Below are positions 6,001 through 12,000 of a stretch of DNA of 64,000 nucleotides, piece after piece. Location of the stretch: contig CAMAVZ010000008.1 of the NCBI GenBank assembly GCA_945861645.1, positions 1 to 64,000 on the forward strand, written 5' to 3'. Every line of letters starts with the position of its first letter. The stretch's first letter is position 1. A program made the position numbers. This DNA comes from Opitutus sp. GAS368. GTDB taxonomy: Bacteria > Verrucomicrobiota > Verrucomicrobiia > Opitutales > Opitutaceae.

Positions 6001-9000
6001 ATTTCACAGCAGAGGAAAAAGCTTTTCTAGCCGCCAACGGCTGGACGGCCCAAAACCTGTATGACTACGCCGAAGATGAGTTGAACGGGGGCGAGCCTGG
6101 TTGGGACATTGCCTTGAGTATCGAGCTGATTCGCCGCGATTATTTTCTCAATGTTCAAGGCGGAAAATCGACCGGTCATTTTATGGCTGAAAATGAGCTA
6201 CCGGGAAAATCGATTCTCCTCGCAGGGCTGCCTTGGTTGGCGCGACTCATTCCCAAAGCCCACGCTAAGCTGCGTGGCGAATTACCGACCTCGATGATGT
6301 ATGCCTGTGGCGGGGATCGAGCATTTTTTCAACAACATGATATTCAACCCGCAGAATTTCTTAGCCTCATCTGGCGTCACGGTAATAATCACGCCGCCAT
6401 TAGCGACTGGGTCCAGCAACGCAGCCAGTCGCGCTGACTAATTTAGCTGTGCCGTAAAATTCCCATTCTAATCTAATGGTTATGCCGACTTATAATCTTA
6501 AAGTTAATAGCGCCGTACCTAAAACCGAGGCGGCCGACGGCACGCTCACCGTGCGCCAAGTAACCGCCGCCGTTGAGGTGGGCCCAATTATAAATTTAAG
6601 CGGCGCGGAAAACCGAGTGCAGGGCTCTATTATCGATGGTATCAGCATGGCTTGGTTGCAGGAAATAACCCATGACCGCGGTCGCATCATGCAGAGTAAT
6701 TTTAATGATTACCCCCGACCGGGCTAGGTGAGCCCGTCTACCCCGCCGTGCCGCCCGCAATCTGTAATGCCATCTTTGCCGCCACCGGGCACCGGATTCA
6801 CCAATCAGCAAAACTGATTTGCGGTGGAGTTAAGCCATCAACTAACGCGCTGATGGCTGCGTGCTATCCTCAGAACGGACGAAGATAGACCATCACCACC
6901 GCCACAAGCAGGAGCAAAAGCGCCGCGAGACTAAGCGCGCCGCGCAAGTGAGCCTTCCGGTAGACGATGCCGCCCAAAGAAGCTAAGCCCAGCCAGCAAA
7001 CGAATTTTACCAGCACCCAGCCCGTCGCGAAGGGGATTTTCTGGATGGTTAGCATCCCAAAACCGCTGACGAACATCAGTAAAGCAGCGCTACCGGTGAC
7101 CATTAACGTACGCTTGCGGTTGGCGGGATCAGGGTTCCCAAAAGCCATGAAAGTGTGCGCCGTCAGCACGAGCAGGGAGAAAATGTGTAACAGTTGGTAG
7201 TAGGGTAGTCTTTCCATAGTGGGTGGGTTTAAAAAAATAACACTCCATTCGTGCCGTATACTCCGGAGCTCATGTCCTTTTTAAGTTAAAGGTGGGCACC
7301 ACCCGACGGACCTCCTGTCTTCCGATTTACGGCCTGACATCAGCCCGCCTGTCAGCGGTTCCCAAATTATAGCAAAGGCAAAGAGCGTTGGTGGAGCACC
7401 TCGAACACAACAGGGTGTCTAAGAAAAAGCTACCCCCACTTGATCCAGCCGTCAAATGCGAACCCGAGCACGGTTGAATATTTATCCAGCATCGGGACAA
7501 TATTCTAACCCAGAAAAACGCGGAGGCAGATTGACACGAATGCGGCAAAACATCTAGGTTCGGAATATATGACATCGCCGCAGGGACTATTTCAGATAAG
7601 CGCGCCCCTCACTTTTGGTTGTTTTTGCCGCTAAAATAATTGGCCTGACCATGACGACCTTAACCAAAGTGAACGATGATGGCAGCAGCGAGTTCGTCAA
7701 ACAATCGAGCCTTTACCAAGAATTCCTCGCCGAGCGGGAAGAAATTTTAAAGCATAAGTGGATCGAGTCTGAACGCCTTGGTCACGATATCGGCTTCGAA
7801 CGCGCTCTGCTCGATTGGATCCGCAAGCATCGCGATAGCTGGCGGGCGGCGCGACGGGTCCACAGAGTGAATCATACGGCCCCACACGCTTAAGTCCGGC
7901 CTTTCGCGGATCACGGCAGGACAGGTGCTGAGCCCTAAGGGGAGGCCATTACCGCTGACGCCAACGCTAGGCGCCCAGCGCTCGCAAAAAAAAGGCCGGT
8001 CCCCGAGGAACCGGCCTTAAAATTTAAGCAAAAATGCCTTACTTGATTTCTTTGTGGAGCGTGTGGCGCTTGAGGAAGGGATTGTACTTCTTCTTCTCGA
8101 TGCGCTCGGTCACGGTCTTCTTATTACGCTTCGTGAGATAGCGAGAAGGTGGCTTACCTTCTTTGCGGGCTTCAGTGCATTCCAGGGTGACAGTTTCTTG
8201 CATGGCTTTAAATGAGTTGTAAGGGGCGAGAGCAAAGCCGCGCAGGCGGAGCGTGCAACCTAAATCTGAAGTGCCCCCCAAAGTTCGGCCGGACGCCCCC
8301 CAGATCACGCTCACGCTAGTAGCTAAAAATTTGTCAGCGAAAAGTTTACGAAAAACCTGCTCAGCTCCCGAGGCGTAAATTTGAAAACTAACCGAACCCC
8401 CGCGTTCAGCGTTAGGCGCTAACTCGCTTTTCGGTCAACGCCATCATAACCCCACGGCGGAATAAAGTAACCTGCCCCGAACTGGAAGAAACCACGAGGG
8501 CAATGCAATCGGTAGCTACGGAAATGGCGGCGGCGGCGGCATGACGCGAACCCAGCCCGCTCGGCAAATTGTGGTTATAGTCCGCTGCTTGAATAAGTGA
8601 GCCAGCCGATTCCACCACCCCGTCACCCCTGATGACAAAAGCGCCATCGATGGAGGAGAATTCCTTGATGGTTTCGTCCATAAAAGGATTAAGAATATTT
8701 CGATCCTCTTCCTTATAGCCATAAAATGGATTAAGTACGAGCGGCTTGGTCAATTTATCAACTTTTTCACTATCCCCCACCACAAACAGACAGCCGACCG
8801 GCCGGCCCTCGCGGCCTTCGACCGCTAATTCAGTGGCTACCGCGATGACCCGCTCCAGCACTTCTGGCTTCACGTCCCCGGGTAACAAATCAGCCTGCCC
8901 CGTCAGCAAGGTTTGAAATTCTTTCTCTACGTCGACGACCACAATGGTATCAAACTGATTACTGCCGGCCATCCCACCCACACAGCAAATCCGATCGTTA

Positions 9001-12000
9001 AATACGATCAGGCCACGCGTGAGACCAACGAGCACCGCGCTGCGCAATTGAGCCATGCGCTGATTTGAAAAGGAGCGCACCTGAATGGTCTCAGTAAATT
9101 TGGCGGGGTGATCCTCCGCATCAGTTAAGCTGCGGGTGACGAGAATTGTTTTCAGCGAAGTCTTCCAAGCCGGCGATTCAAAATTTCCCGTAAAGGTATC
9201 GCCGAACACCATCAAGCCAGTGCAACCACTGCCGCGCGCGATTTTTTCCGCTTCGCGCAGGACCACTCGATTTACGCGACTTTGCGGAGCGGCTACCGCC
9301 TTGGCCGCAATGCCGCCAAACCCAATAAAAAGACGATCGTAGAGAGTTTCAAGATCTGGGGCCTGCACCAGACTATCGACGAAATCCTGCTCCTTCAACA
9401 AGCGCGCCAACGCGGCTAGTACTTGCAAATAATCACGAGCTTTCTCATCCGCAATCAACATGAAGACGAGCCGCACGGGCTCATTCTCCATCGCCCCATC
9501 GTAGCGGATCCCATAATGACTCCGCCCGACCGCCAGCACGTAGCGTCGGCCCATCTTAACCCGAACGTGCGGCATGGCTACCCCGAGGCCAAGGTAAGTG
9601 GTCATCGTACTTTCCCGCCGCAGCAAGCCCTTCAAGAGACTATCTCGATGCAAATCAGGAAAACGCTCCACCGTAAGATTGAGCAATTCAACTAGGGCCC
9701 CTTCCATATCCGCGCTCCCGAGATCAAGAATCCGACCCCGCGAAATATATCGATCTAACCGCATGGTTTAATTTTGCCGTGCGCAGAGCTATTTTTCCCA
9801 ATTCAGCGCACCCTTCTTGAACTCATAAAATAAGCCCAAGACGAGGACGCCCAAAAAGAAAAGCATGGGGGAAAGAATCGCAATATCGTTAGCGAGGAAA
9901 TCCCGGTAGACAAAAGTCCAAGGAATCAGAAAAACGACCTCGATATCAAATAAGAGAAACAGCATCGCGGTGACGTAAAATTTAACCGCGAAGCGCGTGT
10001 GCGTACTGCCATTACTCGGCACCCCGCACTCATAAGGAGTGTCCTTGATCGCGTTCGGCCGAAAGCGTTGCCCGATTAATTGGCTGGCCATGACCACCCC
10101 CACGGTAATGGCCGCGGCGAGCGCTACTTGAATAAGTAAGGGAAGATAAGCGGCAGAAACCATGCCCAGAAGATGCGCGCATCGCGGGCCCAGCTTCAAG
10201 GGGATTTTTCAGCGGACAGCCCAGTTGCTTTTGGCGCAAATTTGTTTTTGCTGCGGTATGCTTAAACTTAGCCTAATGCTTAGCCTCTGCACCCTCCCGC
10301 TTGCCATGTTCGCCCAAGCCGCTTTCCCCCCGACCCCGCCAGATAGCAACGAAGTTAAAACCTTACCCGCTGGTATCCTGCTCCAAGCAGCTGGTCGCGG
10401 CAATTATTTCGACGGCGCAGATAATCTCTTCAGCCCACTTTTCCGCTACATCTCGCGACACAAAATCGCCATGACCACGCCGGTCGAAGCCCGCATCGAA
10501 AGTGCCGCGATGTTGTTCTGGGTCGCACCGGCTGAACAAAATAAATTAGCCGGGAACGAAGCGGGCGTTGAAATAATCACCGTGCCCGCAAGGCGGGTCG
10601 CGAGCCGAGGCGAGCGAGGGGGCTACACTCGTGAAAATTTTGTCGAGGCCCGCACCAAGCTACTCGCATGGATAGTCACCCAGCCGGACTTAGCCCCCGC
10701 CGGCGAACCTTACGCCGTGTACTGGAATGCACCTTTCGTGCCGTTTTTCCTGAAACGCTTTGAAGTTCATGTACCCGTGCGCACCCGCGCGACCGGAGGC
10801 TAACGATCACTCCGAGTTAAGGCGAACTGCCGCCTGAGCGCTGCCACGCGACATGCGCAGGATCGTTTGTGCCCACCCCGAGTTGTTGCGCAAAATCAAG
10901 CATACGGGCGTCGTCCTCTGAGATGGGCTCAAAGCCCGCCTTCTTTCTCGCCGCATTAAGCTTCTGCAACATGAGGGCATCTAGAATGACGGGATCCGCA
11001 CTCATCAAAAGCTGCGGCTCTGAATTGGTGTAGAGTGAATTAAAATAAGGTCCGCCGATAAACTGATAAAGCTGCAGACTGGCAATATTGAGCGCCCACC
11101 CTTCGCGCAGCTCAGGAATCGCGGCCATTTCGGCCACGGCCGCCGGTGCGGTGGCTGGGCTTTTAAAAAAGCGGAAGGTATTACTCGCATTCCAAAGCGT
11201 GGCATTCACGAGCGCCCCATTAATTCCGAGAATCGGATGATCCGTATAAACGGGTAAATTAATCCAAAAATCGGCATCCAGAAAAAGCGGTGTCGCCAGA
11301 AAACTTTTGCGATCTTCCTCCGTTGTCGTGGTCGACTTGCCCCCCGCGGCCGCTTCCACCGCACGATCATTGGTCACTGGATCGAATCGTGAGGGCAACG
11401 GACTATCATAAAACCAGGTCGGATCATAAAATTTCCCAGACTCGAGCACATAAACTGGATGGCCAGGAAACGGCACCGTCCCACTTGAAAACGAAGGCAA
11501 ATAACCGGTGAGTCGCAACCGCAGTGGGTTGAGGCCAACGAGGAAAATATTTTCGCGGGCAAAGCCCCGCTTCTCCAGCGCCCCAATTAGGCCACGCACC
11601 AAGCCAAAGGGAGTCGCCAAGCCCGGACCAGAATCCGCATAAATTTTTAGCCCAACTTTTTTCTTAGCGCGCGGGATAAGCTGACGACCAGATGATCGCT
11701 CAAAATCCTGTAATAATTGCTCCACGGCATAACGATAATCAGCGTCGCTAAAATCTACGAGGCGATGCTCCCACACCGGAGCAGGCGGCGTGTCTTTAGG
11801 CGCAGCCCAAGCAGGGAGCACACTAAGCAGAGAGATAAAAACACTCGAGAGTAAGGGGAGAAAGCGCATAAAAATAACGCCGATCTTATCAGCATTAAAG
11901 CGGCGCAACGTGACAGACCCGAACGACGGTTAAAAGTTTAATCTTAAAGTGAATTATTTTTGAGCACGGCCCGGATGGTACTTTCACTTAGCGATTATGA

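Follow-up and report, generated by a model that had tools for sequence, protein, structure and literature searches.

A class DacD diadenylate cyclase with a fused EIIA domain in a freshwater Opitutaceae bacterium, and its possible control by a transporter-less phosphotransferase system

To our knowledge, the control of c-di-AMP synthesis is poorly understood for most classes of diadenylate cyclase (DAC). CdaA (DacA) is anchored in the membrane by three helices and regulated in trans. Potassium and osmotic balance are under separate controls, by PTS(Ntr) in Proteobacteria and by c-di-AMP in Firmicutes, and the input to EIIA proteins, phosphorylation of a histidine by HPr, is textbook biochemistry. 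Corrigan and Gründling (2013) reportedly took fusion to PTS_EIIA_2 as the defining feature of the class DacD. After that work, Braun et al. 2019 (PMC6741144) give Lacunisphaera limnophila, Puniceicoccaceae, Coraliomargarita, a Verrucomicrobia and an Opitutae bacterium as representatives of DacD. They also describe DacZ of Haloferax volcanii as the sole and essential DAC of that organism, with overexpression of dacZ being lethal, and tight control of c-di-AMP synthesis is therefore needed. In Caulobacter, the (p)ppGpp enzyme Rel/SpoT is under the control of EIIA(Ntr) in its phosphorylated form (PMC10118264). DacD is a class defined by sequence alone, and our literature searches found no biochemical study of an EIIA-fused cyclase.

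The window analysed here is a stretch of 64,000 nucleotides from the assembly (84.29% complete) of a freshwater Opitutaceae bacterium, Opitutus sp. GAS368, and it encodes a protein that, judged by its sequence, belongs to class DacD; the comparison was made with a Lacunisphaera sp. homologue, rather than with a listed accession. That homologue (P0056) has the same three Pfam domains and is 86% identical over its full length. As an orthologue the gene is unremarkable, its class being on record in the literature, and Pfam has a DacZ_P model; the architecture is not new. The features of the locus are as follows, A1 being an alignment of 56 full-length cyclase sequences:

8412..9764, minus strand: gene for the EIIA-DacZ_P-DAC diadenylate cyclase (class DacD), 450 aa; open reading frame, three Pfam domains over cut-off, full-length homologues
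9336..9710, minus strand: PTS_EIIA_2 domain, residues 19-143; Pfam 77.7 bits against a cut-off of 27, E 1.2e-21
9567..9569, minus strand: codon of His66, predicted phospho-acceptor in GVAMPH; aligned on the PtsN His, at least 90% conserved in A1
9285..9311, minus strand: flexible linker, residues 152-160; the sole internal segment with pLDDT < 50 in the AlphaFold2 model
8910..9275, minus strand: DacZ_P domain (PF21755), residues 164-285; Pfam 78 bits against a cut-off of 27.4, E 6.3e-22
8448..8825, minus strand: DAC catalytic domain (PF02457), residues 314-439; Pfam 76.8 bits against a cut-off of 27, E 1.3e-21, with agreement from the genome search
8640..8648, minus strand: DGA motif, residues 373-375; D373 and G374 invariant in the 56 sequences of A1
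8538..8546, minus strand: RHA motif, residues 407-409; R407 and H408 invariant in the 56 sequences of A1
9789..10199, minus strand: orphan nuoA paralogue (Pfam Oxidored_q4), directly upstream of the cyclase, 24 bases off
8039..8200, minus strand: rpmG, ribosomal protein L33 (Pfam Ribosomal_L33), downstream of the cyclase

The fusion of 450 aa reported in the preliminary description is real: the reading frame and the three domains were recovered with E values that reproduce the 1e-21, 6e-22 and 1e-21 given there, and the GVAMPH histidine, DGA and RH(A) motifs, said to be intact, were located at residues 61-66, 373-375 and 407-409. A profile search of the genome places the fused PTS_EIIA_2 at 9336-9713. 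The gene call of the sequence collection (P0001) has 431 aa; the start that gives 450 aa is backed by homologues, with an invariant M1 and at least 90% conservation of R11 and S17 (A1). Full-length homologues at 79-94% identity carry the names Opitutus, Oleiharenicola, Lacunisphaera and Didemnitutus. Foldseek matches of the DAC domain are CdaA, DisA and CdaM. The third residue of the RH(A) motif varies among relatives (A, R, E, Q, M, T, S); the corresponding motif in CdaA and DisA is RHR. The protein has what is expected of a cyclase that is active and can be phosphorylated, and synthesis of c-di-AMP is predicted from its sequence.

Examination of the gene neighborhood showed that the nuoA paralogue, which shares 34% identity with the copy in the canonical nuo cluster (on another contig, C54), recurs at this position in 9 of the 20 order loci for which flanks were available. 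A metatranscriptome contig of 1,789 nt spans 8413-10201, and the paralogue and the cyclase probably share one operon. The product of the paralogue has three helices, as does the membrane anchor of CdaA. Downstream, rpmG was found in the same position and on the same strand in 6 of the 20 loci.

The label 'EIIA(Ntr)-type', given earlier to the N-terminal domain, is correct for its fold and its nearest solved relatives. By sequence the nearest solved structures are PtsN (E 8e-10); the modelled domain superposes on PtsN 3urr, 4gqx, 2a0j and 1a6j (TM score by target 0.86-0.88, rmsd 1.7-2.0 Å), and His66 pairs with the His of GVAIPH in 4gqx, 3urr and 2a0j. However, the label does not extend to orthology: scores on the PtsN (EIIA-Ntr) models TIGR01419 and NF008145 were 38.8 bits against a cut-off of 138.7 and 29.9 against 221, both below what a PtsN orthologue should reach, and the fruA EIIA model gave 57.9 bits, slightly above the PtsN-model score. 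Arg50/Glu51, the active-site pair that precedes His66, is at least 90% conserved in A1. Phosphorylation by HPr~P is predicted, the domain having the profile, the fold and the His position of a PF00359 EIIA.

The genome encodes a complete set of partners for such a domain. Profile searches returned one DAC in the 84%-complete assembly, namely the fused protein, as well as the single HPr (TIGR01003, 94.5 bits against a cut-off of 47.9) and the single free EIIA (C16:13936-14358, the second of two PTS_EIIA_2 copies), all in agreement with the earlier counts. To these we add one EI of 587 aa without a GAF domain (TIGR01417, 584 bits against 341.7) and one full-length HprK/P (TIGR00679, 321 bits against 240), neither of which had been named before. 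HPr carries both a His site (GIHARPA) and a Ser site (GKSIMG), and both are invariant in 21 order sequences. The only EI does not qualify as the GAF-containing EI(Ntr), PtsP, whose model it matches only from position 168 onward with a score of 413 against a cut-off of 583. Because EI lacks GAF and HprK/P is full-length, this is not the proteobacterial PtsP-NPr-PtsN set. Searches of the 84%-complete genome with PF02378, PF02302 and PF03611 found no EIIB or EIIC, and a c-di-AMP riboswitch, PgpH and DarA were likewise not found in it.

The architecture had been described as kept in every sampled genome of the order, which is slightly too strong. In a phylum sample of 201 genomes (39 of the order including our own, 162 outside), a full-length match was present in 38 of the 39, G030 being the exception, and in 3 of the 162 (G063, G158, G067). 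In a sample of 61 order genomes, the full-length fusion lay on one contig in 53; it was split across contig ends in two (G005, G018), had a degenerate N-domain in one (G053) and lacked the EIIA domain with the rest kept in one (G037), while no cyclase was found in four (G008, G026, G030, G058). Among the 57 order genomes that encode any DAC, 55 have the fused enzyme and no other. Nor is the three-domain form confined to the order: Spirochaetota, Planctomycetota, Fibrobacterota and one 'Deltaproteobacteria' MAG have it too; the EIIA domain is well over the Pfam cut-off in four phyla, and EI was present in 18 of 18 tested genomes of other phyla with this form.

We propose, with a probability of about 0.6, that the activity of the cell's only diadenylate cyclase is set by a transporter-less PTS. 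In this relay, EI would draw phosphate from PEP and hand it to the His of HPr, and HPr~P would donate it to His66 of the cyclase and to the one free EIIA, while HprK/P would throttle the flow by phosphorylating the Ser of HPr. With no EIIB/EIIC sink, the extent to which His66 is phosphorylated would mirror the PEP/pyruvate balance and metabolite state. Phosphorylation may shift the packing of EIIA against the DacZ_P-DAC module, to which linker 152-160 joins it, or its dimerisation beside that module, and the shift would permit or block the step that catalysis needs, in which two DAC domains pair face to face; the full-length model has a pTM of 0.59, at which domain packing is undefined. The pyruvate-kinase-C-like DacZ_P may bring a second, small-molecule input. 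The analysis establishes the domain composition, the motifs, the folds, the gene content and the patterns seen on comparison of genomes; from these we infer the phosphotransfer to His66, its effect on activity and the sign of that effect, and any DacZ_P ligand. The cyclase probably ties the level of c-di-AMP to the carbon and energy state of the cell.

The PTS content of other genomes bears on this proposal. Across the 61 order genomes, EI was found in 52, HPr in 51, HprK in 51 and EIIC in just one, which indicates a PTS without transport function. His66 was present in 45 of the 48 evaluable order genomes that have EI, compared with 4 of the 8 in which EI was not found (Fisher p = 0.0055, a value that ignores relatedness, with several drafts among the latter). 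The losses without EI span four families, with Tyr in G003, Asn in G007, a degenerate domain in G053 and no domain in G037. Relay control of c-di-AMP synthesis, which had been called probable, thus gains from the complete EI-HPr-HprK/P set, the rarity of EIIC, the sole DAC and the more frequent loss of the His without EI. It is weakened by substitutions in genomes that have the donor proteins: G004 and G045 have Tyr and G059 has Asn in place of His66, though EI, HPr and HprK are all present, and the residue is Gln in nine loci (L100, L111, L113, L116, L123, L126, L128, L131, L172; eight titled as Fibrobacterota lineages and one from an untitled bacterium) whose genomes each have 1-7 EI-like genes.

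These natural variants show that the domain can also work without phosphotransfer. It is conceivable that EIIA acts as a protein-binding or dimerisation module, for example by binding HPr or Ser-phosphorylated HPr, with the His as a retained family feature. Consistent with this, three reduced genomes (G019, G044, G046) in which EI, HPr and HprK were not found retain both the EIIA domain and its His. The closed 0.88-Mb genome G003, also without a detected EI, has hprK directly downstream of its Tyr-bearing cyclase and an HPr that keeps the Ser site and has HATP in place of the HARP of others. However, the conservation of His66 and Arg50/Glu51 over 56 sequences and the commoner loss of the His or decay of the domain where EI is missing argue for phosphotransfer, and a Gln, Tyr or Asn might just as well hold the switch permanently in the unphosphorylated form. 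On balance, we regard a purely non-phosphotransfer role as unlikely, though it is the best of the alternatives.

Less probable still is that DacZ_P is the real sensor, binding a metabolite as the pyruvate kinase C-domain binds effectors, and that EIIA is minor or vestigial. The fold is clear: the domain model (pLDDT 81.8, pTM 0.78) resembles the pyruvate kinase C-domain, its best Foldseek matches are pyruvate kinases (E 2e-6), and VIA Z values are 12.5, 12.4 and 11.9 to such C-domains and 8.2 to AF0103 (1vp8), with the next unrelated structures at 6.4 or below. According to Braun et al. 2019 (PMC6741144), PK_C binds fructose-1,6-bisphosphate and AF0103 binds FMN. Forms of ~300 aa with DacZ_P and DAC and without EIIA are widespread (Thermosulfurimonas, Aquisphaera, Singulisphaera, Nitrospinota, Armatimonadota), and others occur as paralogues in G057 and G192; G037, as noted, dropped EIIA and retained the rest. 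Against this reading, EIIA is full-length in 53 of the 57 order genomes with a cyclase and well above its cut-off in other phyla, and the DacZ_P alignment (A2) has no invariant column and hence no evident ligand site. A reversed direction, in which the PTS would learn the status of ATP or c-di-AMP from the cyclase module through a change in how strongly the fused EIIA vies with the free one for HPr~P, draws on there being just one free EIIA that uses the same HPr, but is very improbable given the invariant catalytic motifs and the sole DAC, which make synthesis the conserved function.

If the cyclase is indeed set by the transporter-less PTS, there would be a direct link from central carbon state to c-di-AMP, and the (p)ppGpp of Caulobacter, governed by EIIA(Ntr), would be joined by a second nucleotide messenger under a PTS. 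More tentatively, and with rather less confidence than the proposal itself, we suggest that the PTS of the Opitutales (EI, HPr, HprK/P) is there mainly to set the level of an essential second messenger, with the state of His66 turning the PEP/pyruvate balance and HprK-sensed metabolites into c-di-AMP. In that event, PTS and c-di-AMP control of potassium and osmotic balance would be one pathway in the Opitutales, and the lineages with Tyr, Asn or Gln would be natural 'locked' mutants of the His66 switch. The comparative set, with its transporter-less PTS, sole cyclase, natural replacements of His by Tyr, Asn or Gln, and reduced genomes that have the cyclase and no PTS, should be useful for experiments.

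Three known systems resemble parts of this one. The archaeal DacZ (CdaZ) of Haloferax volcanii and Methanocaldococcus jannaschii likewise has a PK_C-like N-terminal domain followed by DAC, whereas the cyclase here comes from a bacterium and bears an additional domain, EIIA, at its N terminus. The NCBIfam DacZ model matches residues 237-441 (E 1.8e-34); an orthologue of DacZ was ruled out by the haloarchaeal equivalog NF041371 (119.3 bits against a cut-off of 430). With PtsN (EIIA(Ntr)) it shares the phospho-His motif and the upstream Arg-Glu, and differs in that the EIIA domain is fused in cis to its target. CdaA, with CdaR and GlmM, has the same catalytic fold and shares with the present enzyme the role of a sole or essential cyclase that receives regulatory input; whereas CdaA is regulated in trans, fused soluble domains are predicted to do the regulating here.

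The cyclase gene is intact, and the preliminary description of a three-domain cyclase with preserved motifs was borne out: a single open reading frame carries all three Pfam domains, each above its cut-off, together with the GVAMPH, DGA and RHA motifs. The features concerned are as follows.

Window 8412–9764, minus strand: cyclase, 450 aa, found by open reading frame search
Window 9708–9764, minus strand: cyclase residues 1–19, upstream of the Met20 start of the public gene call
Residues 19–143: PTS_EIIA_2 domain (Pfam 1.2e-21)
Residues 61–66: GVAMPH phospho-site motif ending in His66, aligned on GVAIPH of solved PtsN proteins
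Residues 164–285: DacZ_P domain (Pfam 6.3e-22)
Residues 314–439: DAC domain (Pfam 1.3e-21)
Residues 373–375: DGA motif
Residues 407–409: RHA motif
Window 9789–10199, minus strand: orphan nuoA paralogue of 136 aa with three predicted helices, located 24 bases upstream of the cyclase gene

The public gene call (P0001) begins 19 residues downstream, at Met20, giving a protein of 431 aa. M1 does not vary among 56 aligned full-length homologues, and R11 and S17 are each at least 90% conserved; because residues 1–19 are conserved in this way, the 450-aa start appears to be the correct one. The best homologues, those with a named source being from Opitutus, Oleiharenicola, Lacunisphaera, Didemnitutus or Opitutaceae, are 79–94% identical, 450 aa long and retain all three domains, and are labelled 'PTS sugar transporter subunit IIA' by NCBI and 'diadenylate cyclase' by JGI. 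DNA from this stretch is also contained in lake and freshwater metagenomes.

An AlphaFold2 model of the whole protein, built on the 56 full-length sequences, had a pLDDT of 85.5, a pTM of 0.59 and a disordered linker at residues 152–160, indicating that the domains are well defined while the packing between them is not. The N-terminal domain superposes on the PtsN structures 3urr, 4gqx, 2a0j and 1a6j (TM 0.86–0.88, rmsd 1.7–2.0 Å), and the C-terminal domain on CdaA, DisA and CdaM. Modelled by itself (pLDDT 81.8, pTM 0.78), the middle domain matched the pyruvate kinase C-terminal effector domain in Foldseek (E 2e-6); in the VIA comparison it gave Z values of 12.5, 12.4 and 11.9 to pyruvate kinase C-domains and 8.2 to 1vp8, with unrelated folds at 6.4 or less. 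A complex prediction for the EIIA domain (51 aligned sequences, five lacking the His having been omitted) with HPr (21 sequences) gave no answer, with a score of 0.00.

The preliminary description had also counted a single DAC, one HPr and one free EIIA, and these counts hold in the genome's own assembly (2.30 Mb in 116 contigs, 84.29% complete), which contains one DAC domain, one HPr and two EIIA_2 domains, one fused and one free. The free EIIA gene (G000:C16:13750-15453; L007 6751-8453) comes directly after gyrB-gyrA and ahead of a CorA magnesium transporter gene, and rpoN-type neighbours were not found beside it. The assembly further encodes a single 587-aa EI that lacks a GAF domain (TIGR01417, 584 bits vs 341.7) and one full-length HprK/P (TIGR00679, 321 bits vs 240). 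In its HPr, the His site reads GIHARPA and the Ser site GKSIMG; both are invariant in 21 sequences from the order. PTS_EIIC, PTS_IIB and EIIC-GAT gave no match in this 84.29% complete assembly, and a c-di-AMP riboswitch, PgpH and DarA were likewise not found there. A CBS-pair protein encoded next to ptsH was considered as a candidate c-di-AMP receptor of the DarB type and rejected, its best solved relatives being generic CBS proteins with no DarB/CbpB among them.

To place these components in the order Opitutales, every feature was searched in one evenly drawn sample of 61 genomes, including our own.

EI: 52 of 61 genomes
HPr: 51 of 61
HprK: 51 of 61
PTS_EIIC: 1 of 61 (G025)
Any DAC domain: 57 of 61

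The sole genome with PTS_EIIC, G025, additionally has a second, FruB-like EI/HPr. Exactly one DAC, of the fused type, was present in 55 of the 57 DAC-bearing genomes; G016 has an additional, different DAC (open frame of 493 aa, E 1.8e-35), and G057 an additional DacZ_P-DAC paralogue without EIIA. Within this sample no DAC domain was found in G008, G026, G030 and G058, of which G030 is 99% complete. The fused cyclase was full length on a single contig in 53 of the 61 genomes and split across contig ends in two (G005 and G018), while the cyclase of G053 has a degenerate N-domain and that of G037 lacks the EIIA domain. From this inventory, the PTS of the order appears to be a signalling device lacking a transport part, with the fused cyclase as its most conspicuous output.

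All cyclase sequences of the order were fetched and tabulated for the state of their motifs. DGA and RH did not vary in any of them. His66 is replaced by Tyr in G003, G004 and G045 and by Asn in G007 and G059, and is gone with the degenerate domain of G053 and the missing domain of G037. The His is kept in 45 of 48 evaluable genomes with EI compared to 4 of 8 in which EI was not found (Fisher p = 0.0055, relatedness ignored, and some absences of EI may reflect gaps in assemblies). The four losses in EI-less genomes are spread over four families; in three of these a sister genome retains the His, so the losses were separate events.

The association has exceptions in both directions. The His is absent from G004, G045 and G059 despite the presence of EI, HPr and HprK, and three genomes of 0.9 Mb each (G019, G044 and G046) have none of the three, yet keep both domain and His. 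Outside the order, among the best 80 of at least 576 relatives, nine loci (L100, L111, L113, L116, L123, L126, L128, L131 and L172) have Gln at the phospho-site; eight of them bear the titles Chitinivibrionales, Chitinispirillaceae, Chitinispirillum or Fibrobacterota, and the ninth is an untitled bacterium. A loss of EI in the Fibrobacterota Gln variants was rejected, since EI-like genes were present in all nine genomes; at 1 to 7 per genome, their multiplicity is unusual. Given the Gln loci and the His-less genomes that have EI, the sequences clearly point to an EIIA domain that functions in a non-phosphorylatable form as well.

The main alternative is that the EIIA domain works through binding alone, perhaps of HPr. 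The closed 0.88-Mb genome of G003 is suggestive in this respect: EI was not found there, HPr and HprK are both present, the hprK gene follows that of the cyclase directly (L021, G003:C1 4001-6346), and the cyclase site is Tyr. The HPr of G003 has HATP instead of the HARP of the others and keeps its Ser site. We regard this alternative as unlikely overall.

We favor the explanation that phosphorylation of His66 by the PTS gates the cyclase, perhaps with DacZ_P as a second input, and assign it a probability of roughly 0.6. In the PTS, phosphate passes from EI to the His of HPr and from there to the His of EIIA, while HprK/P targets the Ser of HPr. Phosphorylation of His66 would alter the packing or dimerisation of the EIIA domain, and this change could in turn gate productive pairing of the DAC domains, in either direction. 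According to one study, DAC catalysis requires two facing DAC domains, with the DGA Asp touching the partner's ATP, and PK_C domains serve as binding sites for effectors such as fructose-1,6-bisphosphate, AF0103 binding FMN (PMC6741144). It is conceivable that DacZ_P contributes a metabolite input. The preliminary description had proposed control of c-di-AMP synthesis by a phosphotransferase relay; this is still the best available reading and is better supported now, though unproven and with clear exceptions in nature.

Examination of the gene neighborhood placed the orphan nuoA, which shares 34% identity with its counterpart in the canonical nuo cluster (contig C54), upstream of the cyclase gene, and rpmG after the cyclase gene. 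Among the 20 order loci with usable flanks, nuoA occupied the same position in nine and rpmG in six; nuoA was not beside the cyclase in any of the 80 loci from other phyla (the best 80 of at least 576 relatives). The only PTS gene found beside the cyclase, among 63 order loci (20 with usable flanks) and the 80 other-phyla loci, was the hprK of G003. Four metatranscriptome libraries have RNA contigs that map to the cyclase gene; one of 1,789 nt spans 8413–10201, exactly nuoA plus cyclase, and RNA contigs of two more libraries bridge the junction. Parts of the stretch had no RNA contig cover in runs X16–X18. These data fit a two-gene transcript, assembled contigs being no proof of a single RNA and DNA carry-over being possible. 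The dnaG gene (window 12101–13969, plus strand) is some 2.3 kb away from the cyclase gene, and in two other loci, the Fibrobacterota-titled L126 and L172 of an untitled bacterium, dnaG is within 1–2 kb of it, which may be due to chance. An 83-aa open reading frame at window 6476–6727, plus strand, matches only the last quarter (positions 209–277 of 283) of MoCoBD_2, a molybdopterin cofactor-binding domain family, and may be a gene remnant.

Within a sample of 201 genomes from the phylum, full-length matches were found in 38 of 39 genomes of the order and 3 of 162 others. A scan with one genome per species recovered at least 576 relatives, using a query alignment led by a divergent member, which therefore favours lineages outside Opitutales. 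Among the best 80 of these, the three-domain form was present in all 16 loci titled Spirochaetota, 9 of the 11 with a Fibrobacterota title and 13 of the 36 with a Planctomycetota title (among them Fuerstiella and Schlesneria sp. T3-172, whose genome is complete), as well as in all three Verrucomicrobiota and in two MAGs, one of them labelled 'Deltaproteobacteria'. Nine of ten three-domain proteins scanned had all three Pfam families, the Schlesneria protein falling under the DacZ_P threshold. A two-domain version (DacZ_P-DAC, about 300 aa) is found in Planctomycetota (Aquisphaera, Singulisphaera and Isosphaeraceae), Thermosulfurimonas dismutans (Thermodesulfobacteriota), Nitrospinota and Armatimonadota. 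A protein atlas holds nine clusters with the three-domain set, mostly from Verrucomicrobiota. Another atlas cluster, of 351-aa proteins with PTS_EIIA_2 and DacZ_P and no DAC family (55 members, score 0.84, one member assigned to Fibrobacterota), is a lead only.

The review of Corrigan and Gründling 2013 reportedly gives the PTS_EIIA_2 fusion as the defining feature of the class DacD, and DacZ_P is said to have been introduced by Galperin 2023 among 'PK_C-related domains'. Braun et al. 2019 adopt the classes of that review and list Lacunisphaera limnophila, a Puniceicoccaceae bacterium, Coraliomargarita, a Verrucomicrobia bacterium and an Opitutae bacterium as DacD representatives (PMC6741144). 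A Lacunisphaera sp. homologue is 86% identical to our cyclase, which therefore belongs to DacD. Of the 21 gut species reported to have a DacZ-type cyclase in a 2026 survey, 19 are Verrucomicrobiota (PMC12901056). We found no published study of a link between EIIA and diadenylate cyclases, and the figures or supplements of earlier surveys may list the architecture. The architecture is thus a listed, widespread, uncharacterised class, to which this gene adds a member; its value lies in an input signal to c-di-AMP synthesis that can be tested directly.

Compared with known systems, residues 237–441 score 119 bits with the NCBIfam equivalog DacZ (cut-off 430), and the cyclase scores 38.8 bits with the PtsN equivalog model (cut-off 138.7) and 57.9 bits with the fruA EIIA model (cut-off 103.5). 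Because the DacZ and PtsN scores lie below their cut-offs, the cyclase is best described as a relative of DacZ with a PtsN-like EIIA domain, and is not an orthologue of either. The nearest functional precedent is the control of Rel/SpoT by phosphorylated EIIA(Ntr) in Caulobacter (PMC10118264).
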